DNA of 64,000 bases from an uncultured Clostridium sp. (GCA_948467495.1 CAOKEO010000004.1:185-64184); one strand, 5' to 3'. Shown: positions 1,966-19,274, numbered from the stretch's first letter. Numbers and translations are program-made. The notes: a model not told the origin generated them from the sequence alone.

Positions 1966-2022
1966 TCATAAATACAAAATATCTAAATTGCCAAAAAGAA
2001 CCATCTTCTTGGCAATATATAC

Positions 2023-2952
2023 TTAAATCTTATTGCTTGAACCGAAAACATCCACCATTTTATGTTTTACTGTCTCTTTGATTAATTCTCTTGCAGGTTT
2101 TAAGTATTTTCTAGGATCAAAAGCATTTGGTTCTTCTGCTAAAACTTTTCTAATTCCTCCTGTCATAGCTAAGCGTAAATCAGTATCTACATTTATTTTA
2201 GATACGCCAGAATTACTTGCTTGATGCAATATTTCATCTGGGACTCCTTTTGCTCCTGGTATATCTCCTCCATATTGATTACACATTTCTACTAATTCTG
2301 GAATAACCGTAGAAGCTCCATGTAATACGATTGGTGTATTTGGTATTCTTTCTTTTATTTCTTTTAAAATATCAAATCTTAGTTTTGCTTCTCCTTTAAA
2401 TTTGTACGCTCCATGACTGGTTCCAATGGCAATAGCTAAAGAATCACAACCTGTTCTTTCTACAAATTCTTGTGCTTGTGCTGGGTCTGTGTACATAGCA
2501 TCAGAAGCATCGACATTGACATCATCTTCTATCCCTGCTAATTTTCCAAGTTCTGCTTCCACTACCACTCCTTTACTATGAGCATAGTCTACTACTTTTT
2601 TGGTTAGTGCTACATTTTCTTCAAAATCATATTTGGAACCATCTATCATAACCGATGTAAATCCATTATCAATACACATTTTAGCAGTCTCAAAATCTGG
2701 TCCATGATCTAAATGAATGGCAATTGGAACTTCTGGATGTTCCTCTACTGCTGCTTCTATCATTTTCATTAAATAATTAACTCTTGCATACTTGATAGCA
2801 CTAGCAGAAGCTTGCAAAATAACTGGTGATTTACTCTCGTGAGCTGCATCCACAATGGCTTGGATTATTTCCATATTGTTTACATTAAAGGCACCAATAG
2901 CAAAACCTTCTTTCATTGATTTTTCAAACATTTCCTTGGTTGTTACTAACAT
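2023..2952 (-). CDS. fba: class II fructose-1,6-bisphosphate aldolase
   Basis: MLVTTKEMFEKSMKEGFAIGAFNVNNME...IHLDHG...VMIDGS...GTSHGAYKF is the class II FBA signature. Start at 2952 sits behind an AGGAGGAG RBS. The longer ORF in the track is an upstream extension. Confidence 0.92.
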   Translation of the reverse strand: MLVTTKEMFEKSMKEGFAIGAFNVNNMEIIQAIVDAAHESKSPVILQASASAIKYARVNYLMKMIEAAVEEHPEVPIAIHLDHGPDFETAKMCIDNGFTSVMIDGSKYDFEENVALTKKVVDYAHSKGVVVEAELGKLAGIEDDVNVDASDAMYTDPAQAQEFVERTGCDSLAIAIGTSHGAYKFKGEAKLRFDILKEIKERIPNTPIVLHGASTVIPELVEMCNQYGGDIPGAKGVPDEILHQASNSGVSKINVDTDLRLAMTGGIRKVLAEEPNAFDPRKYLKPARELIKETVKHKMVDVFGSSNKI

Positions 2953-3061
2953 ACTTATCTCCTCCTTTTTTGCTATTGTATTTCTATTTTTACGAAATGT
3001 CAAGTACCTTGTATGTAAAAGAGATAAGACAGAATCTCCTCTTATCTCTTGTTCTTTTTTT

Positions 3062-3229
3062 CTATTGTTCATCAAATTTGTAACTTGCACACATTGATTC
3101 GTCTGCTGTTTCTGTATTAACATCTTCCATTGGTGCTACATGAATTGCCTCTAATGTACATTTTGACTTTTCTTGATTATTGTATTTACAACTTGTGACT
3201 GTACAATTTATTTTTTGATTCTCTTCCAT
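3062..3229 (-). CDS. small Cys-rich DUF1540-like protein (55 aa)
   Basis: Not in the ORF track (under 60 aa). GGAGGT RBS plus ATG. Translates as MEENQKINCTVTSCKYNNQEKSKCTLEAIHVAP...ESMCASYKFDEQ, with the C-x-x-x-x-C...C pattern of DUF1540. Confidence 0.55.
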   Translation of the reverse strand: MEENQKINCTVTSCKYNNQEKSKCTLEAIHVAPMEDVNTETADESMCASYKFDEQ

Positions 3230-3292
3230 TTTGTACCTCCCACTTTTTTTATATGTTTAGTATGTGCAAATTTTATAAAATTATTTTCAAAT

Positions 3293-3769
3293 TTAATGAC
3301 ACTCTTTTTTTCTTTCTCCTAATTTTTTACTATCTTCTTTTTGTATTAGACATTTTTCTGGTGGTTGCTGAAAACTTAAATACCAAGATATTCCATTTCT
3401 ATTTTTCTCAATTTCTTCCTTTCTTTTTTGTAATTCTGCAAAAGTCCTTGGCGGAGGAACAATCACTGGCTGACCTGGCATCCAGTTAGCTGCTGTGGAA
3501 CCCTTACTACAATCTGCCATCTGTAAGGCTTGCACAGTTCGAATAATTTCTGGAATAAAACGTCCAACATTGAGTGGATAAATTAAAATCGTTCTTACGA
3601 TTCCTTTATCATCAATAATAAAAACATTTCTTACTGTTTCTGTATTGCTAATATCATTAGCAATCATTCCATATTTTCTGGCAATTTGACCATTTCGGTC
3701 TGCAATAATGGGGAATGATACTTTCATTCCTGTTTTACAATAAATATCATACATCCAAGCTAAATGGGA
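3293..3769 (-). pseudogene. peroxiredoxin (AhpC/TSA, Prx6-like), 3' segment of a gene split into three pieces
   Basis: ...SH|LAWMYDIYCKTGMKVSFPIIADRNGQIARKYGM...NVFIIDDKGIVR... is the C-terminal two thirds of a peroxiredoxin. The frame is closed by TAA just upstream of the junction. Confidence 0.8.
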
Positions 3770-3846
3770 AGCATTGCGAATTTTACCAACTTAAAATCAT
3801 ACTTATTATATCAATTTCTAGGTTTATTATATTTTAATAGTAGTAA

Positions 3847-5436
3847 TCATGCACTTTGTATGATACATAGGTCATTTAACTGTTCATTTATGATATTCAG
3901 TTCTGAAAAATTAAAATAAATATAAATATTTTTATATTCATCTAATTCCACTCTGTCTATTAACTCATATAATATTTTCTTACTTGGTTTTTCCATCTCT
4001 AAAAATGTATCAATGACATTTTCTATTTCTTCATCATTTTCATGATTTTTTTGTTTGTTTTTTAATGTACTCATTTTATTTTCTGTATTCGATTTTTCTT
4101 TTTTTAGTCTTTCTCTTTCTTCGATAAAATCTTTTGAATACCTAAAATAATCCTCATTTGTTATCATTCCATTTACACTATCTAAATACATTTTATCAAT
4201 TTTTTTCGATACATCTGCTATTCTATTTTCTATCTCCTTTAAGTGAAACATTTCTTTTTCCATCAAAGTTTCATAGTTATTTTTGCATTTTTCGTATATA
4301 TGTTTCAATTCGTTCTTATCTGCATAGGTTTTACATATTTGCCTAATAATATACAAAGTTTTTTCTTCAAATTTGTTATAATTATAATTGCAAGTCTTAC
4401 ACTTTCTATCTTTTCCTCTTGCTAAACTACAGTCTATGTATCCTATTTTAGTGTTTTTACCTCTATAACATACTCTAGATTTTCTGCCACAATTATGACA
4501 AAATAGCAAACCTTTCAATAGAAAATCATGTTTTGTTGTTGATAAAGTTTTTTTACTTTTCATAATCTCTTGTACTTTAGCAAACAATTCTTTTGAAATA
4601 ATGGCATCATGCGTATTTTCCACTCTAATATATTCTTCTGGTGTTTTCTTCCTTTTCTTTTTGATTTTATAAGAAATAGAAACACACTTATTTTGAACGG
4701 TATTTCCAATATAGGCTTCATTTATGAGTATTGCTCTTATACTTTTCGGATTCCAAGTTTCTCTTTGATGACTCATGTTCCTATATTGACTTGGTGTTTT
4801 TATATTTTCTTGATCTAATATGGTTGCTATTTTTTGAAATCCATTTCCTTCTGAATATAATTCAAAAATTTGCTTCACTATGTAAGAAACATTGGTGTCA
4901 ATTTCTAGTTTGTTTTTTTGTGTTTTGCTTTTTTGATAGCCATAAGGTGCATAGCTTCCTAGATACTCACCTTTTAGTTCCTTTTCTTTTAGCACTCCTT
5001 TAATTTTTTTCGATATATCTTTGGCATACATATCATTTATAATTGCTTTAAATGGTGTTACATCATTATTAGTTGTATCAAAATAAGTATCTATTCCATC
5101 TAATATAGAAACATATCGAATATCGTTTTCTGGAAAATAATTTTCTATGTAATAACCTGTTTTTATATAGTCTCTACCAAGTCTTGATAAATCTTTGGTA
5201 ATGACCATATTAATTCTTTTTTCTTCTATGTCTGAAATCATTCTTTTAAATTCTGGTCTTTCAAAGGTTGTTCCTGAAATTCCATCATCTACATATTCAT
5301 CTATAAGAATATATTCATTTTCTTTGATGTATCTTTGCAATATATTTCTTTGATTTGATACACTTTCACTTTCTAATTTATCTCCATCTTCACGAGATAA
5401 ACGTATATAAATTCCTACTTTAAAAGTTTTATTCAT
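3847..5436 (-). CDS. large serine recombinase (resolvase/invertase N-domain plus recombinase and zinc-ribbon domains)
   Basis: VGIYIRLSREDGD...SVSNQR...DDGISGTTFERPEF...DLSRLGRD catalytic domain. Cys cluster CHNCG...C...CKTC. 529 aa. Confidence 0.9.
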   Translation of the reverse strand: MNKTFKVGIYIRLSREDGDKLESESVSNQRNILQRYIKENEYILIDEYVDDGISGTTFERPEFKRMISDIEEKRINMVITKDLSRLGRDYIKTGYYIENYFPENDIRYVSILDGIDTYFDTTNNDVTPFKAIINDMYAKDISKKIKGVLKEKELKGEYLGSYAPYGYQKSKTQKNKLEIDTNVSYIVKQIFELYSEGNGFQKIATILDQENIKTPSQYRNMSHQRETWNPKSIRAILINEAYIGNTVQNKCVSISYKIKKKRKKTPEEYIRVENTHDAIISKELFAKVQEIMKSKKTLSTTKHDFLLKGLLFCHNCGRKSRVCYRGKNTKIGYIDCSLARGKDRKCKTCNYNYNKFEEKTLYIIRQICKTYADKNELKHIYEKCKNNYETLMEKEMFHLKEIENRIADVSKKIDKMYLDSVNGMITNEDYFRYSKDFIEERERLKKEKSNTENKMSTLKNKQKNHENDEEIENVIDTFLEMEKPSKKILYELIDRVELDEYKNIYIYFNFSELNIINEQLNDLCIIQSA

Positions 5437-5497
5437 AATTGTTCCGATTGCTAAAAACCATAATTCATCATCCCCAATTCTTAGATTGGAAAAGAAT

Positions 5498-5593
5498 TGG
5501 TCTTTTGGCTAGGCAAATGAAATTTTAATTTATGAGGCGTACTTTTGTACGTTGATTAAATTAAAATTGAAATTTAACGACGCCAAAAGTCAA
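5498..5593. repeat. long imperfect palindrome (nested inverted repeats) upstream of the element A recombinase
   Basis: cttttggc...gccaaaag, aaattttaatttat...attaaattaaaatt, and ggcgtac tttt gtacgtt at the centre. Confidence 0.45.
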
Positions 5594-5640
5594 TTATTTT
5601 TCAATCTTTGTTCCTAGCAATCACCTGCTTAGGAAACATT

Positions 5641-5787
5641 CTAATACTTTTGCCTATTCTTTTCAATTTCTTCTTTTGTTTGTATTCCTTCTTTTATATA
5701 TATTTCAAATGCTTTTCCCATTTTCTCATATATATCTTCTTTTTCTGAATTAAATATACAATATACTTTATCTTTTTGTTCCTTCAT
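5641..5787 (-). CDS. small hypothetical protein (48 aa)
   Basis: AAGGTGA RBS plus ATG. Translates as MKEQKDKVYCIFNSEKEDIYEKMGKAFEIYIKEGIQTKEEIEKNRQKY. Below the ORF-track size cut-off. Confidence 0.3.
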   Translation of the reverse strand: MKEQKDKVYCIFNSEKEDIYEKMGKAFEIYIKEGIQTKEEIEKNRQKY

Positions 5788-5927
5788 ATTTCACCTTCTT
5801 TGAAATTGTCTTGTTATAGATATATTAAAAATCGTACAAAAAAATAACAAGTTTTTATTTTACTTGTTATTTCATAAAATTTGTATTTATTTTTAGACAC
5901 AATAATCCCTTTTAGATATTAGAATTT

Positions 5928-6869
5928 CTAGGTATCACTTGAGCAATTTTTAATATACAATATATTTTTATTTTGCAAACCTAATTTTATAATTTCCTTT
6001 CTAAGCCAAACGTTATCTAATTTCATAATCTCATTTTGAAACTTTTCATGAAATAATTTTTCCATATTGTTCTGCACTTCTAAATCTTTTGCCAACAAAT
6101 AACTTTTCCCCTCTTTTAAACAAATAAGATTCAGCATCCATTTTGTCCCAATACTATTTAATGTTTCATATATTATTTTTTTATTTTCTAATATGCTATC
6201 TTTATCCCATATTGTTACTTGTGCAAAAATTGGTGGCAAAATGTCATTTACATTTTCTATCTTTGTATCATTTTCTATTGCTTTTTTTAAATTATGATTA
6301 ATTGCTAATTGACATTCTTTAAAATACTTTTCTGGATATGTTTCATCCTTAATTATTTTTTCTAATTCTTTATAAGCAATAATATCTCTTTTCGTTGTTA
6401 TTTTTGCTTTTAAATTTAATGTATTATCTAAAATTGCAGACATAAGTAAAACTGCTAAATCCTCTGAAATTTGTCCAATCATGTGTTCTTTTTCAAATAA
6501 TTCAACTATTATGGTTGCTACTGAACCTATAAATTCTATTTGCGCTTTTTCTTTTAATTTATCTTTCCAATATATTTCATATCCTACATGGTGGTCTATG
6601 ATTCCAATTATCTTTTCTTCTTGTACAAATGTATCAAAATAATCTTTATTTGATACATCTATAATCACATACTCATCTTCTTTATCTGGTTTATATTCAT
6701 CTAATTTAGAAGCTAATTTCATAAGACTTAGGGTTATACTTTCATTTAATTTTGCTGTTGAAATAGCTTTTGCTTTTATCCCTTTCAAATTTAATAATTT
6801 AGCATAGGCAATACAACCTGCATAAGCATCTATATCTATGTATTTTTTTCCAGAGGTTACCACTACCAT
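5928..6869 (-). CDS. DHH/DHHA2-family phosphoesterase, similar to family II (PpaC-type) pyrophosphatases
   Basis: IDIDAYAG..., IIDHHVGYE (DHH motif), GSVATIIVE, LLMSAILDNTLNLKAKITTKRD. Last gene of a tight operon. Confidence 0.65.
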   Translation of the reverse strand: MVVVTSGKKYIDIDAYAGCIAYAKLLNLKGIKAKAISTAKLNESITLSLMKLASKLDEYKPDKEDEYVIIDVSNKDYFDTFVQEEKIIGIIDHHVGYEIYWKDKLKEKAQIEFIGSVATIIVELFEKEHMIGQISEDLAVLLMSAILDNTLNLKAKITTKRDIIAYKELEKIIKDETYPEKYFKECQLAINHNLKKAIENDTKIENVNDILPPIFAQVTIWDKDSILENKKIIYETLNSIGTKWMLNLICLKEGKSYLLAKDLEVQNNMEKLFHEKFQNEIMKLDNVWLRKEIIKLGLQNKNILYIKNCSSDT

Positions 6870-6870
6870 T

Positions 6871-8049
6871 TTATATTATCTCCTTTTCTTGTTCCTCTAA
6901 TCTTAATAAACGATTATACTTTGCAATTCTATCGCCTCTTCTTGGTCCTCCAATTTTTATATAGGTAGCATTTAATGCTACTGCTAAATCACACATAAAA
7001 GTATCTTCTGTTTCAATACTTCTTTGCGAAACACATGTTGTCATATTTTCTCTTTTTGCTTTACAAAAAGCATTTATGGTTCCTGTTAAAGTTCCTACTT
7101 GATTCATTTTTATTATGATACCATTTGCCAATTCACTATTGATGTATTTATCTCGTGTTGCAAATAAATCATCTCCTACAATACTAATAGTTTTATACTC
7201 TGATTTCATCTTTTTCCAATATGCTTCATCTTTTGAATCAAATGGGTCTTCTATATAGGTAATATTATATTTTTCAATATATTGATTTAATATATCATTT
7301 AGTTCGTTTGATTGTATTGTTTTACCTTGATAGATATAAATTTCATCTTTAAAAAAATGTTCTGCTGCTACATCGATTGCAATGGTTACCTTATTTTCAT
7401 AGTTTAAGGTTTTTATTGTATTTAATACCATTTCAAATTTTTCATCTATTGTCATTTCTTCTACAATCATTCCACTTGATGAACCATAGGCTATTAAAAT
7501 ATCTTTTTTCTTTAATTCATTTTCTATATAAGAATAAATGTCAGTAATTGCTTGTATGGCTTTTGAAAATGGGTGAATATCAACGGCGAGCATTATATTT
7601 TGAATGGAACCTTTTTCTTTTTGATTATGTACTCCACCAGAAAATGTCGCAATTAATGGAATTGGTGATTTCCTGTATTTCTTATAATTTGCTACCTTTT
7701 CTATATATTCTACCAATGTTAAATTTTGAATTTGTGCCATTATTCTTGCAAATGCTAATGAAAATGGCAAACAAATGTTAGAACCTAATTCATGCATATA
7801 ACTATCTAATATAGAATCAAATTCTTCTTGATTTTTTAGCTCTCTATTGCAAACTTCATATATCATCTCATTTAATTTGCTTTCGTTCACTTTATTGGTT
7901 GTTATTACTTCCCTTTTTCCAGGTATAATGGCTGATGGAGATGAACTAATGGCTCTTATATTATAATCTGTTCTTATTTCCACTTCTATGGCTTTTTTTC
8001 CAACTGAATTTAATATTTCTCTTATTTTAATTTCTTCTATTTTTATCAT
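6871..8049 (-). CDS. divergent enolase-family protein in which several catalytic residues appear substituted
   Basis: Enolase motifs IDVAAEHF, IEDPF, VGDDLFAT, IIKMNQVGT, SQRSIETED, IKIGGPRRGDRIAKYNRLLRLEE. QNIML replaces QEFMI and GSSSG replaces GDEGG. Confidence 0.75.
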   Translation of the reverse strand: MIKIEEIKIREILNSVGKKAIEVEIRTDYNIRAISSSPSAIIPGKREVITTNKVNESKLNEMIYEVCNRELKNQEEFDSILDSYMHELGSNICLPFSLAFARIMAQIQNLTLVEYIEKVANYKKYRKSPIPLIATFSGGVHNQKEKGSIQNIMLAVDIHPFSKAIQAITDIYSYIENELKKKDILIAYGSSSGMIVEEMTIDEKFEMVLNTIKTLNYENKVTIAIDVAAEHFFKDEIYIYQGKTIQSNELNDILNQYIEKYNITYIEDPFDSKDEAYWKKMKSEYKTISIVGDDLFATRDKYINSELANGIIIKMNQVGTLTGTINAFCKAKRENMTTCVSQRSIETEDTFMCDLAVALNATYIKIGGPRRGDRIAKYNRLLRLEEQEKEII

Positions 8050-9316
8050 TCAAAATCTCCTTTGTAATATAGGGAAAAATATCAATTGCTTTTTCGATTG
8101 GTAATTTTCCTTTACTAGCATTTTCTTCATCAAATTTTACACTTCCATCATTTTGCACATTTCCTCCTGCGATTAAGACTGGTACTTGATCCGTAGAATG
8201 AATTTTTAGTTCACATGGTGTAGCATGGTCACATGTTACAATTACAATATCATCTTCTTTTATGTCTTTTATTAGATTCGATAAAAAATATTGATCAATC
8301 AATTCAATTGCTTCCACTTTTTCTTTTGGTTTATTATCATGACCTGGCTCATCTGGTCCTTTTATATGAATAAATTTAACATCTGATTCATCTGCTACTA
8401 AAATTTTTTCAGCATTTATTAAAAATTCTTTATCTAATTGTAAATCTAAAGATTTAGAAAAAGTAAATTTGGCACCAATTAACTTTGCTATTGCATTTTC
8501 AGCTGGCAATTGACCATACATGGAAAGTGTAAGTCCAAACTTTTCTTGAAATTTTGGCATTTGCTTAGGTTCTTCTCCACCATCTCTAAAAATCAAATAA
8601 TTAGCTGCTAATTCACCTTTTTCTATTCTTTTTTTATTTACTTCGTTATTTGCTAAAATTTCACTTGACTGTTCTATAAAATCATTAACCATATTAGCAG
8701 TTAGTTTACTTTCTTCTTTTTCATCTAATGAAAAACACCTCAATGGTTTTGGTTCATAATTTTTTACAGGTGCTCCCCATACTCCATTTTTTCTAAATCC
8801 AGGGTCTGTGTTAGATACATTACCAGATAATTTTTCTGTTTTAGTATAAAAAACTAATATGCCTCTATGGTGTCCAAATGCTAATAATTTAAAGCTAACA
8901 TTATAGTTAGATAAATCCACATTTTCTGTTATATCTTTAGCTAAAGTTTGTAATTCTTCATCTTCTAATCCTCTAGCAGTTCTTCTATCTAAGGTTCCTA
9001 ATTTTTCATCATAAGAGGCAAAATTGACTCGAAAAGCTACATAATTGTATTCTTCTGGAATAAAGCCTGTTCCTAATCCTTCTAGTGTTCCTCTTCCTGG
9101 ATAATAAACTTGAGGGTCATAAGAAAGTAGCGCCATACTTCCTGAATCAGACTCTGGCGTTATACTTTTATCTATTACAGTTACTAATGCTTGTTTACCC
9201 TTTTTAACCAATGCATCTAATGCTGGTGTATTTGCAGCTTCTAAAGGCGTTTTATTGCCAAGCATTTCTATCTTTCTGTCTGCTGCCCCATCTAATAGAA
9301 TCATATAAATTTTCAT
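8027..9316 (-). CDS. archaeal-type cofactor-independent phosphoglycerate mutase-like metalloenzyme (ApgM family, alkaline-phosphatase superfamily)
   Basis: MKIYMILLDGAADR...GNKTPLEAANTPALDAL...PESDSGSMALLSYDP...GRGTLEG...IKGPDEPGHDN...CDHATP. Start taken at 9316; an alternative ATG lies at 9349. Confidence 0.7.
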   Translation of the reverse strand: MKIYMILLDGAADRKIEMLGNKTPLEAANTPALDALVKKGKQALVTVIDKSITPESDSGSMALLSYDPQVYYPGRGTLEGLGTGFIPEEYNYVAFRVNFASYDEKLGTLDRRTARGLEDEELQTLAKDITENVDLSNYNVSFKLLAFGHHRGILVFYTKTEKLSGNVSNTDPGFRKNGVWGAPVKNYEPKPLRCFSLDEKEESKLTANMVNDFIEQSSEILANNEVNKKRIEKGELAANYLIFRDGGEEPKQMPKFQEKFGLTLSMYGQLPAENAIAKLIGAKFTFSKSLDLQLDKEFLINAEKILVADESDVKFIHIKGPDEPGHDNKPKEKVEAIELIDQYFLSNLIKDIKEDDIVIVTCDHATPCELKIHSTDQVPVLIAGGNVQNDGSVKFDEENASKGKLPIEKAIDIFPYITKEILNDKNRRN

Positions 9317-9320
9317 ATTA

Positions 9321-9902
9321 CTATCTTCCCTTATTTTCATTTTCTTCATCTAAAAAACTTTTTATTCTTTGATCCAAGCTATGCTCTTTAATATAATGAT
9401 AAACAAATTTAGGAACAAATTGTTTCCATTCTTTTTCTTCTTGAATGCATTTTCTAATATCAGAAGCACTTATTCCTTTTTCTTCTAATGTAACTCTCCA
9501 TAAAACTTCAACATCTAATTTTAAATCATTTTGCAAAGATTTTAGTTTTTCTTCTCCCCATTCATCATAGATTGTCATATAATATTTTGCATCTAAAGGG
9601 GCATAATTAAAAATTTTGTCTGGGAAATTAATTGGAAAAGGAACAATATCAAATTCTTCTTGTTTTACTCCCGCTTCTATCATAGAATATTTAATACATT
9701 CCATCCTTTCAAAATAAGTAAGTGGATTAGAACTTTTCTTTGATCTATGAGGATTGGCATCTGTATATTTCGTTAAATCCACTTCTGGATTACAAATTCC
9801 TATTATTAAATGTTCACATCGCTCTTTTCCTGCTAATAAATATTTCATATGATCATTATGTAATAATTGAAATCTACCATGTATAACGCCTACTTTATCC
9901 AT
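9321..9902 (-). CDS. cytidylyltransferase-fold nucleotidyltransferase, NadM (archaeal NMN adenylyltransferase)-like
   Basis: GVIHGRFQLLHNDH (GRFQxxHxxH motif), LIIGI, and the C-terminal ISASDIR...WKQFVP pattern resemble archaeal NMNAT. First gene of the operon. Confidence 0.65.
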   Translation of the reverse strand: MDKVGVIHGRFQLLHNDHMKYLLAGKERCEHLIIGICNPEVDLTKYTDANPHRSKKSSNPLTYFERMECIKYSMIEAGVKQEEFDIVPFPINFPDKIFNYAPLDAKYYMTIYDEWGEEKLKSLQNDLKLDVEVLWRVTLEEKGISASDIRKCIQEEKEWKQFVPKFVYHYIKEHSLDQRIKSFLDEENENKGR

Positions 9903-10021
9903 CTTTCAAGACCTTCTTTCTCAAATATTTTATTGATTATATAATATTATGTTTAATATGTAAAGAAGTTCCTGAATATAATTTTTCTATAAATTGGGGT
10001 TAACTATCTTATTTCTCATTC

Positions 10022-10056
10022 AAAAAAACACCCTAGATTTAATTCTAAAGTGTTTT
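10022..10056 (-). terminator. candidate terminator after the HEPN gene
   Basis: Short aaacac/gtgttt stem followed by a T-run on the minus strand. Confidence 0.35.
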
Positions 10057-10078
10057 GGATTTTTATTTATATTTATCA

Positions 10079-10498
10079 TTATAAAATTTTCTTATTAATA
10101 TATTCTTCTACAAGTTTTATAAGTTCTTTTGCTGTTTCAATTTGAAGTAATGTATTATCTGGGTTTACTATAAATTCATCATCATAATCACTATCTTCTC
10201 GAACTTGACTTGCTCTTGCAATTCTTCTTCCCATTTTTCTTGGAAATATTTCTGTATTAATATAATTTTTATTAAAATAAGCTATCACATCTTTATGTCT
10301 TTTAAAATCTATTGGTTCTAAAGCTAATACACTTCTAATTGAATGAAAAATTGCATAGTAAGCTCTATTATTAGCTGATTTATATAGTTTTTCATGATAT
10401 AATACTTCGCATGCTTTGATATCTTCTTTTGCTTGTTCTAATCTGTGCAAAACTAATTCTTTTGATACTTTACACTCCATATAATACAACTCCTTCAT
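10079..10498 (-). CDS. HEPN domain protein (toxin half of a HEPN/MNT pair)
   Basis: Helical about 140 aa protein with ...YYAIFHSIRSVLA...ASQVREDSDYDD. Overlaps the upstream MNT gene by 29 nt. Confidence 0.7.
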   Translation of the reverse strand: MKELYYMECKVSKELVLHRLEQAKEDIKACEVLYHEKLYKSANNRAYYAIFHSIRSVLALEPIDFKRHKDVIAYFNKNYINTEIFPRKMGRRIARASQVREDSDYDDEFIVNPDNTLLQIETAKELIKLVEEYINKKIL

Positions 10499-10829
10499 TT
10501 TGAACGTTCCTATAAAAAGGTAATGCTTCTAACCAATAATTAAATTTATCAATATTTTTTATTAATGGAGAAATCAATACATCATTTTCTAATTCAATAT
10601 CATAAGCAAAATCCCATATTTTTTCACTATATTCTACTATTTCTTCATCTGTTAAGTCTGTTAGTATCATAATATCAATATCAGAGCTTGTATTAAAATC
10701 TCCTCTTGCATAAGAACCATAAAGGATGATTTTTTTTGCTCTATCTCCAAACATCTTATTTGCTTCCTTTAAAAATTCTTCAATAGATTTCTTTATTTTA
10801 GGTGGAATTTTCTTCTTCATATCTTTCAC
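10470..10829 (-). CDS. minimal nucleotidyltransferase (MNT) domain protein, antitoxin-type partner of HEPN
   Basis: LYGSYARGDFNTSSDIDIMIL is the pol-beta-type GS...DxD motif. Confidence 0.8.
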   Translation of the reverse strand: MKDMKKKIPPKIKKSIEEFLKEANKMFGDRAKKIILYGSYARGDFNTSSDIDIMILTDLTDEEIVEYSEKIWDFAYDIELENDVLISPLIKNIDKFNYWLEALPFYRNVQNEGVVLYGV

Positions 10830-10959
10830 CTCATCTTTATTTCCTTCATTTTATACAATTAGTATATCACTTTTAATTCTATTTTTCTACTAATTTTTAA
10901 TATTTTATACAGGTGATTGCTAATTTTATTCTTTTGTTGGTAAAATCTGGTATGTTTCA

Positions 10960-11064
10960 TGAGAACTATTACTATCAACACTTAAACCTAAAAGTTCTGT
11001 ATTCATTTCTTTAAAATATGTATGTGCCCTTGTAAAAGCTATCATTTCTGTTGTACACACTGGG
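10960..11064 (-). pseudogene. peroxiredoxin, middle segment (peroxidatic Cys region)
   Basis: The minus strand reads ...[37 protein letters not shown] and then leaves the family and stops. It lies between elements A and B. Confidence 0.75.
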
Positions 11065-11091
11065 GTAAAGTACACTTCTTTGAATGTGTTT

Positions 11092-12394
11092 TTATATTAT
11101 ATTTTCAATATTTCCTATACTATATAAAGGTATATTAATAAGCCAATCTTCTTTTCTATAATCAGACATTGATGTTCTGACATTTACTTTTGTGTTATAT
11201 TTCTTTACAAATGATTTTAAGCTTTTAGCTTTTAAATTTTCTTCTGATTTAACTTCTATTGGAACTACATTTATTCCTAACTGTACTATAAAATGCAGTT
11301 CAGCTGTAGCTCTTTCTGCACTCCAATAAAATACTGGTATGTCTTTATTAGATTTTAATTCAGTTAATACAAATTGCTCTGTAAAAGAGCCTTTAAACTC
11401 TGTAAATATTTCATTTCCTTCCAATAAAATTTTGGCATCTATTCTGGTCATAGCACCTAAAAGTCCAACATCTAGAATATAAAGCTTAAAAGCACTTGTA
11501 TCTTGGTAGGCTATAAGTGGAATATTAGGTCTGTTTACTCTGTCAATTTTATATATTAATCCACAGTCAATTAGCCATGCTAAAGCTAATTCATATTCTT
11601 TTGCTCTTGCGCCTTCTTTAATTAAACCATATATAAACTTTTTATTTTCTTTTGCCAATTGTGCTGGAATACTATTCCATAACATTTTTAGTCTAGGAAC
11701 AATTTCAGTAGGTGCATGTTTAGAAAAATCCTCTTCATATGCTTGCAATAATTTTAGTTGAGTTTTTCTAACTTGTTTATAATCTTTTGTTTCTATATAC
11801 TTATTTACTGCTGAAGGCATGCCACCTATAAAATAATATTCTCTTAAATAGGAAATAAATTTGTCTTTAAAAACATTGATTAAATCCCAATCATTTGCAT
11901 TTAATATTTCTACTAATTTTTCTTCTCCGAATAGCAAGTAAAAATTCTTGAAAATTCAATGGATATAAATCCATAAAATCAACTTTTCCAACTGGGAATG
12001 AAGTACCTTCATGTAAAGCAACTCCTAAAAGTGAACCAGCTGCTATAATATGATATTGCCCTGCATTCTCACAGAAATATTTAAGGGAAGTTAATGCTTT
12101 TGGTACTTCTTGAACTTCATCAAAAATGATTAATGTGTTTTCTTGATCAATATCAATATCCGCTTCCAATTTTAACCCTTTTACAATTCTATTTATATCA
12201 TAATCTTTTTCAAATAACCTTTTCATTCTATCATTGCCATCAAAATTTATGTAAGCAACATTTTTATAGTTATTTTTCCCAAATTCTTTCATAATCCATG
12301 TTTTTCCTACTTGTCTAGCCCCTTTTATTATTAGAGGTTTTCTATTTGCTGATTCTTTCCATTCTTCTAATTCTTTGATTTTATCACGATACAT
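11092..12394 (-). CDS. AAA+ ATPase with C-terminal DUF4143 domain; frame changes +1 at in-frame CGG 11927..11929
   Basis: Walker A GARQVGKT and DEVQ. ORFs 11891..12394 and 11092..11937 join as ...[18 protein letters not shown] when the C is skipped. Confidence 0.75.
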
Positions 12395-12578
12395 ATTTTT
12401 TACCTCCTTATGCTATTATATGTATATTATAACACATTTATACAAAAATACAAAGGATAATTTTATTATTTTTACATTTATTCAAAGGATTTTATGATAA
12501 AATAATACACTTTTTCAAACGAATTTTTATATTATGCTACACATCTTAGAAGAACATCTTGAAAATGATTACATTTTT

Positions 12579-14160
12579 TCAAACGAGTTTTTCAATATCA
12601 GTTTTTAAATCAAATCTAATAATTTTATCTTTGTCTATAAAAATTTTATTGATAATCATTTGTAATATCATTCTGTTAGGCTTCCCGAGTTTCAATAATT
12701 TCGTCAAAATAATCTGTTGCATTTTTCAATTTCTGAACTTCATCTTTAGTATTTTTCCTTTTATCACTTTCCATTAAAGAAGTTAAATATGATATACTAT
12801 TCATTTTTTCCTTTTCCAATTCTTTGTATGTATTTTCAATTAATTCTCTTTGTATAGAATTTGTCGTACATGCCAACTCTTTTATTTTTTGACTAACTAA
12901 CATTTTATATTCTTCGTTTGCTATATTTAATTTGTTTTGGAGCTTATGTTTATTATCTTCTTTTTTATCTTGTTTTATTTCAATTTTAATATTTTGTATC
13001 TCTTTTAAATATTGCTTTTTGGTAAATTTCAGAAATTCTTTCAAATGTATTAGTATATCCTTTTCTTTTACCTCGTGGCAATGACAAGCTTTCGTACTAA
13101 ACTGTCTATATTGGGAACAATCATATCCTTTTTCTTTTACTTTTCTTTTAATCATTATACCAGACATTCCTGAACCACAATCTGAACACTGACACATTCC
13201 TGAAAAATAATAATCTCTTTTGGCATTTGTACCTGAAGTATTTTGTTCTTTCTTTTTCTTTCTTATTTCTTGTGCTAAATTGAATATTTCTTTTGAAATA
13301 ATTGGCTCATGATGATTTTCAAATATAAAATGTTCTTCTTTTGGTAATTTTACAGCTTTTCCTCTAATATTTATGGTTTGCTTTTTATGCGTAATTAAAG
13401 TACCTGTATAAATTTCGTTTTTTAAGATATTACTTACCATATCTTTTGTCCAAGATGCTTGTACTTTATGCTTATACACTCGTCCTCGTTCTAAATGTTT
13501 CATTCTGTAATATGCTGATGGCGTTGGATAATTATATTTTGCATTTAATATTTCACTGATTTTTTGAAATCCATATCCCTTTTCAACATATAATTTAAAT
13601 ATTGTTTCAATAGCTGGTTTTAGTTCTTCTATGATATACAACATAGGAATATCATCTTTAAAAACCTTTTCATAACCATAGTAATTTCCCATAATTAGTC
13701 TCGCTGTTTTTTGTTTGGAATACATATGATCTCTTGTTTTCCTAGAACAGTCTTTTACATATCTTTCATTAAACCAAGTAGTAATTCCAATGCAATCATC
13801 TCTATCATTTAGCACATCATAGCTCCCACCCATTTCAGAAACTAATATTAAGTTTTTTTGCATATTTTTGAATTCATCGATAAGAACCAAAACTTTCCCA
13901 TTATTTCTTCCTATTCTTGATAGGTCTTTTGCTATAACTACATCAATTTTTCCTCCTTTTACTTTTTCTATCATTTTTGAAAATCGAGGTCTATTTAAAG
14001 TATATCCCGAAACATTGTCATCTATGTAGAAGTCATTATCTGATATAATCCAGTTACGAGTGGTAGCATATTCTTTGATGATTCTTTTTTGTTCTTCTAT
14101 GCTTGCATAATTTTCTCTGTCCTCGTCTCTGGACAATCTACAATATCCTACAACTGTCAT
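12579..14160 (-). CDS. large serine recombinase; C-terminus continues in the +1 frame after in-frame CGG 12685..12687
   Basis: VVGYCRLSRDED...DDNVSGYTLNRPRF...DLSRIGRN, and CQCSDCG zinc ribbon. The +1 continuation GKPNRMILQMIINKIFIDKDKIIRFDLKTDIEKLV resembles the usual C-terminal tail (compare recombinase A, KKILYELIDRVELDEYKNIYIYFNF). Confidence 0.85.
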
Positions 14161-14239
14161 TTTAATCTCTTTCCTTTCTCAAAGCATAATTTTAGGTTAC
14201 TGCTTCTCACATGACCTGATATTGCCTATGCATTGTATG

Positions 14240-14479
14240 TTAGCATACATTGTCTGTTAATTCCACTTGTTTCATAACTATTTTTTTAAGAAGCTCGGGA
14301 TAATTCTCTTTTCCTGTTATGAAAATAGCTATATGATATTTTTCTTTTTTGTATTTTTCAATTATTTCTTTTGTCTCCTGTTTTTCTAGTTCTTCTTCTG
14401 TTAAATAAATTTGCCTATATTTTGTATTAGAAATTTCATTAGAAGTAATTTGCATTCTATTTAACTCCTTCGCAATCAT
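14240..14479 (-). CDS. hypothetical protein (79 aa)
   Basis: ORF only. Lies upstream of recombinase B on the same strand. Confidence 0.4.
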   Translation of the reverse strand: MIAKELNRMQITSNEISNTKYRQIYLTEEELEKQETKEIIEKYKKEKYHIAIFITGKENYPELLKKIVMKQVELTDNVC

Positions 14480-14672
14480 TCTCTCTAAATATTATGCAAA
14501 AAGTAATAGCATTTATTTCTTTTCGTCTAAAAATGGTACATTTTTATAAAATTTATATATCCTTCAATATATAAAAGTCCATTTTTCAATTAGATGTTGC
14601 ATTTTAGAAAATTTATCTTTTTTTATTTCTTATATGTGAATATTGTTACTATACTATTGATAAAATAATACA

Positions 14673-14722
14673 ACACGAAGTAGTTGAAATAAATGATATT
14701 TTCAACTACTTCGTGTTTTTTT
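14673..14722. terminator. strong hairpin (17-bp perfect stem) with flanking T/A runs, bidirectional terminator candidate
   Basis: acacgaagtagttgaaa ... tttcaactacttcgtgt followed by TTTTTT. Confidence 0.6.
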
Positions 14723-14739
14723 CTCGTTTTCTCTCTCCT

Positions 14740-14967
14740 TTAGATATCTTTATTGGCTAAAAAAGTAACAAATTCTATAAACCAATCATTTCTAAAAGTA
14801 GCAGAACCCGTATTGACTGGAACACCGGGAAAAGTTTTAGTATGCCATTCTTCATACAATTTTGTAAATGTTACAAAATCGCAATTTAATTCCCCGTAAT
14901 CTTGCAAACTTCTTAATAATTGCCGTAGATCAATTTCTCCTTTAGGATAAAGAGTAAATGCTTTCAT
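14740..14967 (-). CDS. hypothetical protein (75 aa); contains an in-frame CGG (14923..14925) that does not break the ORF
   Basis: AAGGAGG RBS 8 nt before the ATG. No recognisable family. Confidence 0.5.
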   Translation of the reverse strand: MKAFTLYPKGEIDLRQLLRSLQDYGELNCDFVTFTKLYEEWHTKTFPGVPVNTGSATFRNDWFIEFVTFLANKDI

Positions 14968-15197
14968 TGGAATACCTCCTTTATGAAATCTATGTTATCG
15001 AGTTTCTGTCTATATTATATTCTTGTATTTTGTATTTTATGTCTAATAAATTATTCATGGTTTAAAAAATTCATTACTAAATCTACTATTATCTTTTTTT
15101 CTTTTGGATTTGATTCCGCTATTAATAGAGTTAATGCCGTTAATATATTATTATCAGGCATTTCGTTTATTCATCCAAAGATGTAGACTTTACGGGA

Positions 15198-15343
15198 GTA
15201 AAATCACCTGGATGAGAAAACAAAACCAACCATTTTCCTCGATAATCCTCCAATCGAATTTCTCCAAAAGTAGTCTCAGCTTCAAAATCAGGTGCCTTTT
15301 GTCCTATTTTTACATTACCATTTGTTAATAATTCATAATCCAT
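15198..15343 (-). pseudogene. peroxiredoxin, 5' segment
   Basis: [60 protein letters not shown], then it diverges (KSTSLDE*) where CTTE is expected. Confidence 0.8.
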
Positions 15344-15399
15344 AAAAAAACTCCTCTCATTTTTCATTTTTATATTGTATGAGAGAAGTTAATGGAAAG

Positions 15400-16668
15400 T
15401 TACCTTGACTTTTTATGTTTTCGTTTCTTAAAAAAACCAATAATTGCAAAACCAGCTAAGATAAATAATCCCATCCAAGGGAGAAAATTTCCATACTTTT
15501 TAGTTTGTTCTGTTGTAGCTTGTTCCTGCACACCATCTAAATCACTACTTAATTCCTGTATTTGATAAGCTTCTTCTAATTTATCTTTATTTTCAGCCTG
15601 TTCCTCTTGATATATTTTTTCTTCTTGTAGATTTCTTCGATAAACATTCACTTGATATTTCTTCTTCGTAAAACCATTTGGAGCAGTTACCAATACAGTA
15701 ACTAAATTATTTCCTTCCTTCAGATTTTCTTTTCCTGTCACTTCTACACTTGCTCCTTCATTTTCTGGTACTGCTAAAAGATGAATACTTTCTATTTCTT
15801 GCGACACTTCAGCTTTATAATTGGTTTCAGAAATATCAAAAGGTGGCTCTAATAAAGCATTTTCAATTGCTAATATTTCTAAGTTCGTATTAGCTAGTTC
15901 TGGGTTAGCTGTCTTGGTCACATGAATTATATAATTATTATTTTGTACCTTATCTTCTGAAATAACATGAATCGTAATGTCATTTAATCCTTCTTTTAAA
16001 TCAGTATTTCCCTTTATTTCAACAGTAGCTTTCGGATTTTCAGTAATTGCCAATACTTCTACATCTTGGATATCATTTGACAAGGTCAAATAATACTCAT
16101 GAATATCTTTATCAAAATTAGGCGTTAATCCTTCTGTACCTAATCGTAAGGCTTGCAATGTCGCATTGCTACTTTGCAAATTGTTTCCCTGTTCTCCTTC
16201 TGCTTGTTTTTGCAAAACGCTTTCTTCTTTCCCAATTTGCACTTGTTTTTCTTTAAAATCGGTTTGTATCAATTGTGCCTTCTCATTATAAAATTCCCCT
16301 TGTATCGTAAAAGTAACGAATCCATCTTCCTTAGTCTTAAACTTAAATTTAGCCAATTCCCCCTCTTTTGCACTTTTTCCGCCTTGCCTGTCATACCAAA
16401 CAAAAATGATATGATTATCCCTTATATTGGTATTTTCTAGTTCAGACACATACTCTAGTTTTGAACTATCAAAATAAAGAGATAGATTGAAAGCTGCTGT
16501 TTTTCTACTTTCTATATTGACCGTTATTTCTATTTCCTCACCTTTTTCTACGATATCTTTACTGCTAGATAAATAGACTGTTGCTGTGTTAGAAGCATAG
16601 CTGTGGTTTAAGAACCAACAACAAGTCATAATAAAAATTAAGATAATTAAAATTCTTTTATTTTTCAT
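15400..16668 (-). CDS. membrane-anchored surface protein: cohesin-like domain, cadherin-like beta-sandwich repeats and a C-terminal TM anchor
   Basis: Signal peptide. VYLSSSKDIVEKGEEIEITVNIES...LSLYFDSSKLEYVS is cohesin-like. NATLQALRL...LTPNFDKDIHEYY and LEILAIENALLEPPFDISETNYK are cadherin-like. C-terminal hydrophobic helix plus KKRKHKK. Start at 16668. Confidence 0.65.
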   Translation of the reverse strand: MKNKRILIILIFIMTCCWFLNHSYASNTATVYLSSSKDIVEKGEEIEITVNIESRKTAAFNLSLYFDSSKLEYVSELENTNIRDNHIIFVWYDRQGGKSAKEGELAKFKFKTKEDGFVTFTIQGEFYNEKAQLIQTDFKEKQVQIGKEESVLQKQAEGEQGNNLQSSNATLQALRLGTEGLTPNFDKDIHEYYLTLSNDIQDVEVLAITENPKATVEIKGNTDLKEGLNDITIHVISEDKVQNNNYIIHVTKTANPELANTNLEILAIENALLEPPFDISETNYKAEVSQEIESIHLLAVPENEGASVEVTGKENLKEGNNLVTVLVTAPNGFTKKKYQVNVYRRNLQEEKIYQEEQAENKDKLEEAYQIQELSSDLDGVQEQATTEQTKKYGNFLPWMGLFILAGFAIIGFFKKRKHKKSR

Positions 16669-16685
16669 AAACATCTCTCCTTTTG

Positions 16686-16927
16686 AGATATGGGACATGG
16701 GACGTAGATAATGTCCCAATTATAAATAATATGAAAACTAATGTATCATCTATTATTTTTTTACACCTTGTGTGTCGCAACCTTCAGATTTTAATGTCAT
16801 GGGTTGCTCCAATCGCACTCGCTTTTGCTCGTTTGGTCGCTTACGCGGTGTTACAAAAATAATAGATGATACATTAAGTTAGCAATTTTAAGTGTTTAGG
16901 ACATTATCTACGTCCCCATGTCCCTAT
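16686..16927. repeat. family 1 MITE-like element, full-length copy (about 240 bp, long hairpin, TIR GGGACATTATCTACGTCCCCATGTCC)
   Basis: Near-identical copy at 50972..51230. Its right end overlaps the TAG stop of the upstream GH73 gene. Confidence 0.7.
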
Positions 16928-19179
16928 CCACCTTGTTGTATAATTTGCAATCCTAAAATATGTCTTTGAATTAATAGTAAATCCACAGAGGTTGGCTTTT
17001 TGCCACTTTTGTTAATATTACTAGCTTTTCTAAAAATAGCATCCATTGGTTCTATTTCTAAAATATGTCGTTGTAAAACTAATAAATCCACACTCGTAAT
17101 TTTTCCGTCGCCATTGGCATCTCCATACAAGATAACTTGATATTGTCTTAAAATCTTGCCATCCTCTTTTACACGTATTTTGCTACCTGTTCCCACAAAA
17201 TCGGTATCTTGTAAAATTTCATTTTTGTAATTCACTATTTCAATTTCTAAATCAGTTGTAATTTTTTGTTGGATATCTGCAACCGTATTGTTATTGACAT
17301 CTATCCCACTAATTTCTAAACTATTTACCGTTAAAGAACTATCAAAATGAATTTCGGAATCGTCCATAGTTCTTACAACAAATAGTTTACATTGTGCTTG
17401 AATGCTTGAATTTTCCTGAGAAATAGCTAATAAATTGGTTTCTCCTATTTGTTTGGCTGTGATAATTCCTTTTTCTTGTATGGTTGCTATTTGTGTATCA
17501 CTACTTTGATAGACAATGGTCTGATTATTGGCATCTTCTGGTTCAATCGTTCCATGGATTTGAAAAGTATCTCCCACTTGCATATAAATTTCACTTTGGT
17601 CTAATTTAATTCCTGTTACTTTACTATATACTGTTATCGTGATTTGATTTTGCACATTATTTTCTTCTGCTTTAACACAAATGGTTGCCGTTCCAGAACG
17701 AAGAGCCTGTATATTTCCTTTGTCATCAACAGTTGCAATAGTGGGTGCGCTAGAGGTATATCTTATCTTATGATGACTGGCTTCTGCTGGCGAAATTTTT
17801 ACTTGCAATTGTTTTTTCTCTCCTTTTTGTAAGGTGGTATTATCGAGACTAAGTTCAATCTTTTCTATCTGGACAGGGGGTATTTCTGTAACATAGGTCT
17901 GATAAATAAAACCAACCATTCCATTTTCGAGTATTACTTTATCCCATCTTTCCCCTGATTGCCTCCCTTTTGCAATTCTGGTCATTTTCTCCTGCTGATT
18001 GATAGTGGTAATAATTTCATAAGAAGTAGAAGGACCAGTTCTTACATTTACATTGTTTCCATTGCAATATACCTTGGTATTATCTTGATTAAAATCATTG
18101 GGATTGATATTAGGACTTTGTGTCGGAATCGTTGGCATATTATGATAAATGGGTATAATAAATGACATAGATGTTTCTAATAATCCACTTTTTTGATAGC
18201 CATTGTAAATAGACTTAGACTCACTATAAGGAGCTAATACATTGGTCATATATTGATGCCAAAACAAATCATTTCCTTTGTCATCATTGACATCAAACTT
18301 TTGCAAATAAATGGTATTTTGCCCTATATTAATATAACTAGAACCAATAAAAATCCCACCACCTGTAATGGCTCTTTCCTTGGTATTCCAAGGAATTAAG
18401 TATTTATCTTTAGTTGCTTGGCTTGCCCCTTTTCCATCTTTGGCATATTGTAAACCATTCTTAATTGCCCCCATCGGTTCTGCTGAACTGGTAGCCCCAA
18501 TGTTATAAAAATTGTACAAGCCCTTAAAACCTTCTACCCTTCCACTAATGGAACTATGTGATAAAAAAGGTCCTACCTCTTGTTTAATACGAGATGCTAA
18601 ATGATAGGGACTTACCTTTGATGTTTGTCCCCCTCGTAAAATCAAATCAGCATATTTTTCATTCATAGAAATCGTATTCCCATTACTGTCTAAATAGGAC
18701 ACTTTTGTTTGATAAAATTCAGTTCCATATAAGATTTTCTCAATTCCATCCAAATGGTTTGTATGTTCATCATAAGACAAGCCCTCAAATTGAAAAAGGC
18801 GAACTTCATTTAAAAAATTTCTAGGATCCATACAATATTCTACTGCTTGTCTGGAACTATCTACCCAACCGCTGTCTACCTCTACATTATATTGACCTGG
18901 TGTCGTATTTTTCCATCTGTCGGAATAATTTTTAGGAACTAAATTTTTGCCAAATACATTTTCCTGATTGATAACATGATTCCAATCTAAATTAGTATAT
19001 AAAGCTGTAAATTTCCAATTCGGATGTTTTTTGGCTAGTTCTCTCAAATACGGCTGATAACTACTAGGAAAACTATCAATTCCTTCTAATTTTGTAGATG
19101 CTATTACTTGAAAATAGAGAAATAAACTTACTAACATCAGCAAAAATGAAATACTAATACACAACATTTTCTTTTTCAT
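16924..19179 (-). CDS. secreted peptidoglycan hydrolase: GH73-like N-acetylglucosaminidase, SH3b, two Big_2 domains and a C-terminal dockerin
   Basis: Signal peptide. ...GQNTIYLQKFDVNDD...WHQYMTNVLAPYSE is GH73-like. VNVRTGPSTSYEII...GFIYQTYV is SH3b. LSLDNTTLQKGEKKQLQV is Big_2. YGDANGDGKITSVDLLVLQRHIL...KPTSVDLLLIQRHILG is the dockerin duplicated segment. Confidence 0.75.
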   Translation of the reverse strand: MKKKMLCISISFLLMLVSLFLYFQVIASTKLEGIDSFPSSYQPYLRELAKKHPNWKFTALYTNLDWNHVINQENVFGKNLVPKNYSDRWKNTTPGQYNVEVDSGWVDSSRQAVEYCMDPRNFLNEVRLFQFEGLSYDEHTNHLDGIEKILYGTEFYQTKVSYLDSNGNTISMNEKYADLILRGGQTSKVSPYHLASRIKQEVGPFLSHSSISGRVEGFKGLYNFYNIGATSSAEPMGAIKNGLQYAKDGKGASQATKDKYLIPWNTKERAITGGGIFIGSSYINIGQNTIYLQKFDVNDDKGNDLFWHQYMTNVLAPYSESKSIYNGYQKSGLLETSMSFIIPIYHNMPTIPTQSPNINPNDFNQDNTKVYCNGNNVNVRTGPSTSYEIITTINQQEKMTRIAKGRQSGERWDKVILENGMVGFIYQTYVTEIPPVQIEKIELSLDNTTLQKGEKKQLQVKISPAEASHHKIRYTSSAPTIATVDDKGNIQALRSGTATICVKAEENNVQNQITITVYSKVTGIKLDQSEIYMQVGDTFQIHGTIEPEDANNQTIVYQSSDTQIATIQEKGIITAKQIGETNLLAISQENSSIQAQCKLFVVRTMDDSEIHFDSSLTVNSLEISGIDVNNNTVADIQQKITTDLEIEIVNYKNEILQDTDFVGTGSKIRVKEDGKILRQYQVILYGDANGDGKITSVDLLVLQRHILEIEPMDAIFRKASNINKSGKKPTSVDLLLIQRHILGLQIIQQGG

Positions 19180-19274
19180 GTTTTTTCTCCTTTCATGAAT
19201 TTGGGGATGCCCTTAGCTGTGCGAGCATGAAGCGAATTTACAGATAGTAATACCTTTAGGTACAGAGGAAAAAA

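Follow-up and report, generated by a model that had tools for sequence, protein, structure and literature searches.

A peroxiredoxin gene of an uncultured Clostridium is split in three by two serine-recombinase elements plausibly excised during sporulation

Of what use to a cell is a gene whose coding sequence is broken twice, by two different intervening elements? A 64,000-nucleotide stretch of DNA from an uncultured Clostridium sp. (the window) raises this question: its peroxiredoxin gene prx lies in three minus-strand pieces, parted by elements of 4.1 kb and 7.2 kb that each encode a large serine recombinase (LSR). The reading we favor, at a probability of roughly 55%, is that these elements are of the skin, SPbeta and gin type and would be excised in the mother cell during sporulation, prx being a dedicated target of two LSR families. 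Piece 1 (15191..15343) carries codons 1-51, ending GDFTPV, and its frame enters the site-1 element (element A), where it stops after KSTSLDE. Piece 2 (10959..11057) carries codons 52-84 (CTTEMIAF...SVDSNSSH), with a frame that enters the site-2 element (element B) and stops after 10 further residues, and piece 3 (3293..3763) supplies codons 85-240 (LAWMYDIY...KKECH) and the stop codon. Joined in frame, the pieces encode 240 amino acids (aa) that match Pfam AhpC-TSA (4.9e-37) and 1-cysPrx_C (1.6e-06), score 273 bits against the NCBIfam peroxiredoxin equivalog NF009668 (cut-off 211), and align to PDB 5ovq (2.7e-62) through DFTPVCTTE and SVDSNxSHxAW, without a gap across either junction (DFTPV|CTTE and SNSSH|LAW). 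By its AhpC/TSA fold, PxxxTxxC cysteine motif and 1-cysPrx_C domain, prx is a Prx6-type, 1-Cys peroxiredoxin. The site-1 crossover lies inside the FTPV|C codons of the peroxidatic-cysteine loop (codon 51/52) and the site-2 crossover inside the SSH|LAW codons (codon 84/85), these being the two most conserved motifs of prx. A preliminary description of the stretch had placed the three pieces correctly to within a few bases and had proposed that they join to one uninterrupted AhpC/TSA peroxiredoxin, with a stop a few codons past each junction and one LSR per intervening block in the same orientation; Pfam, NF009668 and 5ovq agree on the joined protein, the stops fall where given above, and each block has its single LSR gene on the strand of prx.

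We give next to no credence to an artefact or a dead relic, that is, to chance fragments, mis-assembly or an old pseudogene. The window is matched at 99.5-100% identity by 15 contigs of independent metagenome samples (13 of the 15 at 99.9% or more), and the split arrangement is therefore not an assembly artefact; in all 15 assemblies of this strain, both elements are integrated. An in-frame join that matches solved structures and the occupation of the same sites in many species likewise refute it, and only two frameshifts within element A, described below, speak in its favor. Intact prx orthologues with 68-92% identity are found in several hundred metagenome-assembled genomes of gut Clostridium and Clostridia, and share with the window the synteny of prx, a DUF1540 gene and an aldolase gene.

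Both elements, with all of their genes, lie on the minus strand; the co-orientation of all genes follows from the strand bias of the whole window. Element A (11058..15190, ~4.1 kb) comprises attL, the small open reading frames (ORFs) orf75 and orf71, the LSR2 gene, an AAA/DUF4143 ATPase gene and attR, the latter two genes being frameshifted. Element B (3764..10958, ~7.2 kb) runs from attL through an MNT/HEPN pair, PhpF-like, PhpG-like, enolase-like and DHH genes to orf48, LSR1 and attR, and looks intact. The right end of each element forms a constant core, in which a small conserved ORF precedes the LSR gene; the non-phage cargo is variable. LSR1 (3847..5436) is full-length at 529 aa, matches a PHROG integrase family (4.7e-98) and has homologues of 522-542 aa that are alignable end to end; the LSR2 gene occupies 12579..14160. 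Pfam Resolvase and Recombinase score above cut-off in both proteins, Zn_ribbon_recom passes its cut-off of 25.3 bits in LSR2 (30.7 bits) and stays below threshold in LSR1 (20 bits), and the motifs YCRLSRDED and YIRLSREDG are readable in the two recombinases. The proposal that the two recombinase elements are independent is borne out by ~34% identity between LSR1 and LSR2 and by their different att sites.

These att sites could be rebuilt in silico. attL and attR of element A share TTTACYCCMGTR, the 12-nucleotide (nt) overlap of piece 1 with attR (TTTACTCCCGTA) occupying 15202..15191, and the rebuilt attP is palindromic (gtgtacTTTA-cccccg-TAAAgtctac, with 6 nt between the arms). Excision of element A would yield the junctions attB1, CATCCAGGTGATTTTACTCC[C/A]GTGTGTACAACAGAAATG, and attP-A, AAGAAGTGTACTTTACCCC[A/C]GTAAAGTCTACATCTTTGG. 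In element B, attL and attR overlap in TCYCAT, and the attP arms, gttggtaaaat and attttaccaac, are separated by 28 nt, with the central CA inside the overlap; the predicted excision junctions are attB2, GATAGTAATAGTTC[T/C]CATTTAGCTTGGATGTATG, and attP-B, TTCGCAATGCTTC[C/T]CATGAAACATACCAGATTTTACC. Both rebuilt attP sites are thus imperfect palindromes centered within a short attL/attR overlap, as expected for LSR att sites. A phage origin of the elements was considered and rejected: PHROG searches with 10 element proteins identified no capsid, tail, terminase or lysis genes, integrase apart, only the enolase-like protein (a family of unknown function) and the nucleotidyltransferase (cytidyltransferase-type families, weakly) had matches, and a scan of IMG/VR returned no LSR2 relative and LSR1 relatives at 41% identity or less.

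The same two sites are occupied in relatives, and each by its own recombinase family. LSR2 relatives sit at prx FTPV|C in ~85 contigs. Homologues with 85-86% identity use the same prx codon in contigs of other species (L123-L128), and a metagenome scan with the LSR2 family alignment added 80 further loci (L134-L213, 65-90% identity), in which the family is found at prx codon 51/52 in every locus that reaches far enough. Behind the LSR gene, the prx 3' part is complete in 60 loci, which comprise 56 of the 80 metagenome loci together with the window, L124, L126 and L127; the prx 5' piece is present as well in ~30. Five of the site-1 elements (L158, L159, L161, L170 and L182) are minimal, consisting in ~2.5 kb of orf71 and LSR only. 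At site 2, LSR1 homologues (70-82% identical) reside in L125, L129-L131 and L132/L133, in four other elements with differing cargo. The contig L125, from another species, shows the same double split of prx, and its sister contigs L123, L124 and L126 carry the site-1 element only. The flanks of L123 and L125 are 99.8-100% identical and represent a natural empty and filled site 2, so that attB, attL and attR of site 2 could be read directly from near-identical strains: attB reads ...aatgcatcacat|ttagcatgg..., with a 12-nt overlap, and the attP arms are ttggtaac...gttaccaa. None of the 80 LSR2-family metagenome loci carries an LSR1-family element, and the double state is therefore rare but recurrent. 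From the placement of these insertions, each site is confirmed as the dedicated attB of its own LSR family, which makes the case for an integration hotspot stronger than originally proposed.

Further traces of recombination were observed at site 1. In three other species, an intact prx is preceded by a second copy of codons 1-51, at distances of 372 bp, 7.4 kb and 10 kb (L071, 9605..10153; L009, 608..780 and 8051..8223; L014, 1..130 and 10006..10135); behind this second copy comes the left arm (P') of an LSR2-family element, with no recombinase. Such copies resemble scars left by earlier insertions at site 1, the intact gene having been regained later. In L127 (2244..9629), two tandem LSR2-family elements occupy site 1, parted by an intact attP-like P-P' junction at ~4123 (cacattgtaaGACTTTACACCCgtaaagtctaaatc), and the upstream recombinase is decayed. 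The prx match past the LSR gene begins at residue 34-39 instead of 48 in L145, L154, L156, L163-L169, L193, L200, L205 and L209; the element side of attR in these loci has additional prx-like codons, so that flanking prx sequence has apparently been captured.

Dedicated sites alone would also suit plain insertional inactivation, in which the best conserved stretches of prx, widespread but dispensable, serve as reliable landing sites, as tRNA genes do elsewhere, the gene is lost in carriers, and excision serves horizontal transfer only, with no developmental programme. We consider this possible but rather unlikely. The position of both crossovers in the two most conserved motifs is in its favor, and LSR divergence does not strictly track that of prx, the window and L123 being 86% identical in LSR and 72% in prx. 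The coding sequences themselves argue otherwise: all 60 prx 3' pieces behind an LSR2-family gene are free of stop codons, and pairwise NG86 omega is 0.18 for split prx (0.125 for 60 intact alleles). Omega of the LSR genes is 0.20, LSR and prx distances correlate (Mantel r = 0.52, reached in 0 of 2000 permutations), and the split 3' pieces span ~40% protein divergence. A long co-residence in which the gene is kept functional would fit these selection data, which are supportive, not decisive. The 2.5-kb cassettes, which lack transfer functions and nonetheless persist in many genomes, are a further point against inactivation.

If split prx is kept, when would it be needed? The host can be classed as an endospore former, since the window holds spoIIIAA, AB, AE, AF and AH (58310..63809, minus strand) as well as ytfI/ytfJ (21856..23041). 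Upstream of prx, a putative sigmaK-type promoter was identified on the minus strand (15373..15403), with GTAAC as -35 element (15403..15399), a spacing of 17 nt and CATACAATA as -10 element (15381..15373). In the orthologues, GTAAC-N16/17-(T)CATAnnATAtA recurs at a constant spacing to the prx start codon. A strict form of the motif has 41 matches in 1.43 Mb of related loci, 26 of which are prx promoters, and GTAAC-N15-18-CATANNNTA has a single match in the 64-kb window, the prx promoter itself. The motif fits the sigmaK consensus of C. difficile, with AC at -35 and a -10 element shared with sigmaE. The few non-prx genes behind the same motif had no family match and lend no independent support to the sigmaK assignment, and the spoIIIAA upstream region, situated at the window edge, provided no usable mother-cell promoter for calibration. 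The form AC-N16/17-CATAnnnTA is conserved among intact alleles, and of 15 unique upstream regions of split alleles 12 retain it; such retention of a promoter in front of split genes speaks against inactivation.

The gene directly downstream of prx (3062..3229, minus strand) encodes a Cys-rich DUF1540 protein of 55 aa (Pfam DUF1540, 3.7e-10), is probably transcribed together with prx and is also present in L127, L129 and L132. CdeA, an exosporium protein of C. difficile, has DUF1540 as its domain, and a statistical association links the DUF1540 family to endospore formers (PMC7677010, PMC2955703). In C. difficile, cotE, which encodes a coat peroxiredoxin-chitinase, has a mapped sigmaK promoter (PMC3789822). 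With its sigmaK-type promoter and CdeA-like DUF1540 neighbor, prx resembles the peroxiredoxin part of CotE. Given the spoIIIA genes, the promoter type, the DUF1540 neighbor and the CotE precedent, the preliminary description was probably mistaken in taking prx for a redox gene unconnected with sporulation, and to judge from these features late expression of prx in the sporulating mother cell is probable. We infer both the mother-cell timing and a coat function of the protein. A sporulating host and a mother-cell-like target gene constitute the known setting of excised elements, which again disfavors mere inactivation.

The promoter region can also fold. Its spacer (AACTTCTCTCA, 15390..15380) and the Shine-Dalgarno region (TGAGAGGAGTT, 15359..15349) are complementary and form a helix that covaries, with compensatory changes in 9 of 10 pairs and a score of 0.40 compared with 0.23 for shuffled alignments (0 of 500 reach the observed value); slid controls score 0.19 at most. 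Rfam has no match in 2000..17000. One possibility is that a hairpin encloses the promoter and silences transcripts reading through it; another is that the helix acts in translational control. Fold-back inhibition in IS10 is a precedent for hairpin silencing of read-through transcripts.

A small conserved protein is encoded upstream of each recombinase gene. orf71 (14240..14455; MQITSNEISNTKY...) lies directly upstream of LSR2 and has no Pfam or PHROG match; all 80 metagenome loci, as well as L123, L125 and L127, have a homologue of it adjoining the LSR gene on the upstream side. orf48 (5641..5787; ..VYCIFNSEKEDIYEKMGKAFEIYIK..) precedes LSR1, with homologous ORFs of 45-50 aa upstream of LSR1-family genes in L125, L129 and L132. 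orf48, like orf71, matches no known family. The two are the candidate recombination directionality factors (RDFs) of their elements. Two conserved hairpins stand before orf71 (~14456..14560, minus strand; 49 unique sequences). The first is terminator-like (AAAAGAGA..TCTCTTTTT), and the second (CATAAYATTT..AARTRTTATG) shows compensatory changes and ends at the ribosome-binding site. A conserved CATAAYATTTA box is located ~41 nt upstream of orf71, and 34 of the 49 unique sequences, which are mutually related, have ATA 16-18 nt upstream of this box, a sigmaE-like arrangement (background 0.12). We also considered self-timed excision, with read-through from the prx promoter driving orf71 and LSR; it is unlikely, because the terminator-like hairpin precedes orf71.

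Recombinases with such partners could, in principle, run a reversible on/off switch in growing cells ("active lysogeny"), with oxidative or other stress driving excision and reintegration. An LSR with its directionality factor can catalyze both reactions, near-identical strains differ in whether they carry the site-2 element, and each LSR has a conserved partner ORF with hairpins and boxes of its own upstream. A switch of this kind is nevertheless very improbable in our estimate: 15 of 15 assemblies of the strain are fully integrated, Pfam and PHROG searches recognized no replication or maintenance function for an excised circle in either element, and promoter type and neighbor gene point to sporulation, not stress.

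For excision in the mother cell, the steps would be as follows. The elements would be inherited through the germ line, that is, the forespore, where a split prx would carry no cost. In the mother cell, which is terminally differentiated, recombination between attL and attR by each LSR, assisted by its small partner, would release the element as a circle, and both excisions would be needed to rebuild prx. By analogy and context, regulated excision of the prx elements is a plausible proposal. A more elaborate version would make prx a two-lock gene, in which both LSR/RDF pairs fire in the mother cell, early sigmaE-like promoters drive the factors, the hairpin insulates the prx promoter so that only post-repair transcripts begun inside it are translated, and the 2.5-kb cassettes act as DNA-level introns widespread in human gut spore formers; taken as a whole, this version is doubtful.

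Several observations weigh against excision in the mother cell, some of them as signs of decay that favor inactivation. LSR2 of the window lacks its 33 conserved C-terminal residues. A 1-nt insertion (T near 12688, GAAAC[T]CGGG) shifts its frame, leaving an ORF of 494 aa (12676..14160; Pfam Resolvase, Recombinase and Zn_ribbon_recom) compared with 522-546 aa in homologues, and the conserved last 33 aa (GKPNRMILQMIINKIFIDKDKIIRFDLKTDIEKLV) sit in another frame (12579..12680). The lost tail holds positions invariant across 64 homologues (P490, L495, I499, I502, F512 and K515). A PDB sequence search with the intact LSR2 matched only the catalytic domain, and an AlphaFold model of the intact allele had a mean predicted local distance difference test (pLDDT) score of 57; neither was informative on the tail. 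Being truncated, LSR2 possibly no longer excises element A, and from its sequence element A in the window strain may be stuck, with prx locked in pieces. The sister strain L214 (98.9% identical DNA) is without the insertion, and the mutation is therefore recent. The preliminary description had overlooked this insertion, on account of which it is doubtful that the window strain can still rebuild prx.

The AAA_14/DUF4143 ATPase gene of element A (11092..12394) is likewise broken into two overlapping ORFs, by a frameshift near 11891..11937 at att-c-gga. It is a single ORF in L033, where both halves abut in one frame, and in L151, as read from the in-frame offset of its two matches, and the split is apparently common to L214 and the window; of the two frameshifts, the LSR2 insertion alone is peculiar to the window lineage. 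Decay also affects the upstream tandem LSR of L127 and the prx 5' piece of L123, which is frameshifted. A similar extra base in prx (cca-C-gga) was seen in L123 and L014.

On the same side of the balance, no rejoined gene is on record: exact look-up of the joined Prx, both half-joined products and alternative starts found none among ~15 billion proteins, and split prx pieces occur on 20-26 contigs in the same collection. Such absence would follow from a restriction of excision to mother cells, a minority that is later degraded, and would follow equally if excision never happens. Contig breaks gave no evidence of excision either, L095 breaking 17 nt before the site-2 core and not at the core. 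Synonymous divergence is near saturation for LSR and prx alike (dS ~0.9-1.3), which makes the insertions undatable and a long-standing split indistinguishable from a recent one, and some horizontal movement is evident. The sigma assignment is a consensus match, and the same region reads weakly as a sigmaA promoter (GTAACA-N17-TAnAAT). Finally, the covarying anti-Shine-Dalgarno helix could point to a transcription start located more upstream; the AC-N16/17-CATA motif would then not be the promoter.

The cargo of element B is of a different kind. An MNT nucleotidyltransferase (10470..10829) and a HEPN protein (10079..10498) form a toxin-antitoxin-type pair. They are followed by an operon (5928..9902) for an NMNAT-like, PhpF-like nucleotidyltransferase (9321..9902), a PhpG-type phosphoglycerate-mutase homologue (8027..9349), an enolase homologue (6871..8049) and a DHH Mn-pyrophosphatase-like protein (5928..6869), all assigned by Pfam. 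The PhpG homologue scores 591 bits (cut-off 545) against NCBIfam NF038358, CMP-5'-phosphonoformate--3-phosphoglycerate phosphonoformyl transferase. By these family assignments, the cargo looks like the PhpF, PhpG and PhpH steps of phosphinothricin biosynthesis. In L005 (7153..9928), the cargo trio, 78-87% identical, lies directly upstream of an intact prx with no recombinase near. In L088 (79..1453) and L089, the left part of element B including MNT/HEPN is swapped for sequence unrelated to the window that contains an rve-family transposase gene. In element A, orf75 (14740..14967) is a small ORF with no family match.

Upstream of prx (15400..21044, minus strand) lie genes for two cohesin/cadherin-like proteins, a sortase and a 751-aa SH3/Big_2/dockerin protein. 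This cell-surface cluster is not conserved among relatives; the downstream neighborhood is. In L002, L004 and L006, the prx stop and the aldolase gene are set apart by ~3 kb of additional DNA. Further along the window, recA, rny and ymdB are found at 24558..30846, and the spoIIIA operon lies at the window edge.

Which known systems does the locus resemble? The preliminary comparison with skin in sigK is apt, in that an LSR element splits a gene and the join is precise and in frame. Like the prx elements, skin (SpoIVCA in B. subtilis; CD1231 with the RDF CD1234 in C. difficile) has its LSR gene at one end, and its excision restores the frame; in skinCd, cell-type specificity depends on a small directionality factor (PMC5025042). 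The prx elements differ from skin in hitting a peroxiredoxin gene and not a sigma factor gene, in being two per gene and in their non-phage cargo, and their excision is as yet a proposal. Closest is gin in gerE of B. cereus ATCC 10987 (GirC/GirX), a non-prophage element with an LSR, the ~6 kDa GirX and a junction overlap (PMC5595907): as in the prx elements, an LSR gene is accompanied by a tiny partner and there is overlap at the junctions, and gerE is a small mother-cell gene of the sigmaK period, as prx may be. However, gin is 28.6 kb long with three recombinase genes and is a single insertion, whereas the prx elements measure 2.5-7.3 kb, have one LSR each and belong to two families at two sites. 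SPbeta in spsM (SprA/SprB), vfbin in spoVFB, vrin in spoVR and yin in yabG rely on an LSR and a directionality factor to rebuild an interrupted mother-cell gene in sporulation (PMC4191935, PMC10747680), but are prophages or remnants thereof, unlike the prx elements, which have no phage genes or close IMG/VR relatives.

Multiple interruptions are known from heterocyst-forming cyanobacteria, with elements in nifD, fdxN and hupL and with nifBHDK of Calothrix NIES-4101 in 13 parts (PMC4874684, PMC11249958). These share with the prx elements minimal forms that are little more than a recombinase and several insertions per gene cluster, and their target genes are needed only in a terminally differentiated cell, as prx would be; they differ in phylum, in the type of differentiation and in using tyrosine as well as serine recombinases. 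C. difficile CotE (CD1433), likened to prx here by description, has a 1-Cys peroxiredoxin domain and is transcribed in the mother cell from its sigmaK promoter, but is a chitinase fusion that is not known to be interrupted. Our literature searches found no peroxiredoxin gene reported as a target and no two elements in one gene of a spore former.

The sporulation genes known as targets, sigK, spsM, gerE, spoVFB, spoVR and yabG, come from a handful of cultured Bacilli and Clostridia. Most likely, prx adds a new target gene to the class of elements cut out during sporulation, and this target would be the gene of an antioxidant enzyme that is probably a coat component. The class would also gain two new recombinase families with clean, naturally validated attB/attP sites, and very small elements made up of a recombinase and its partner ORF only; the sets of LSRs, att sites and candidate RDFs are usable as genome-engineering material. 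Collectively, the more than 80 contigs recovered in one scan, from uncultured human-gut Clostridia, suggest that programmed DNA repair in sporulation is wider than cultured models show.

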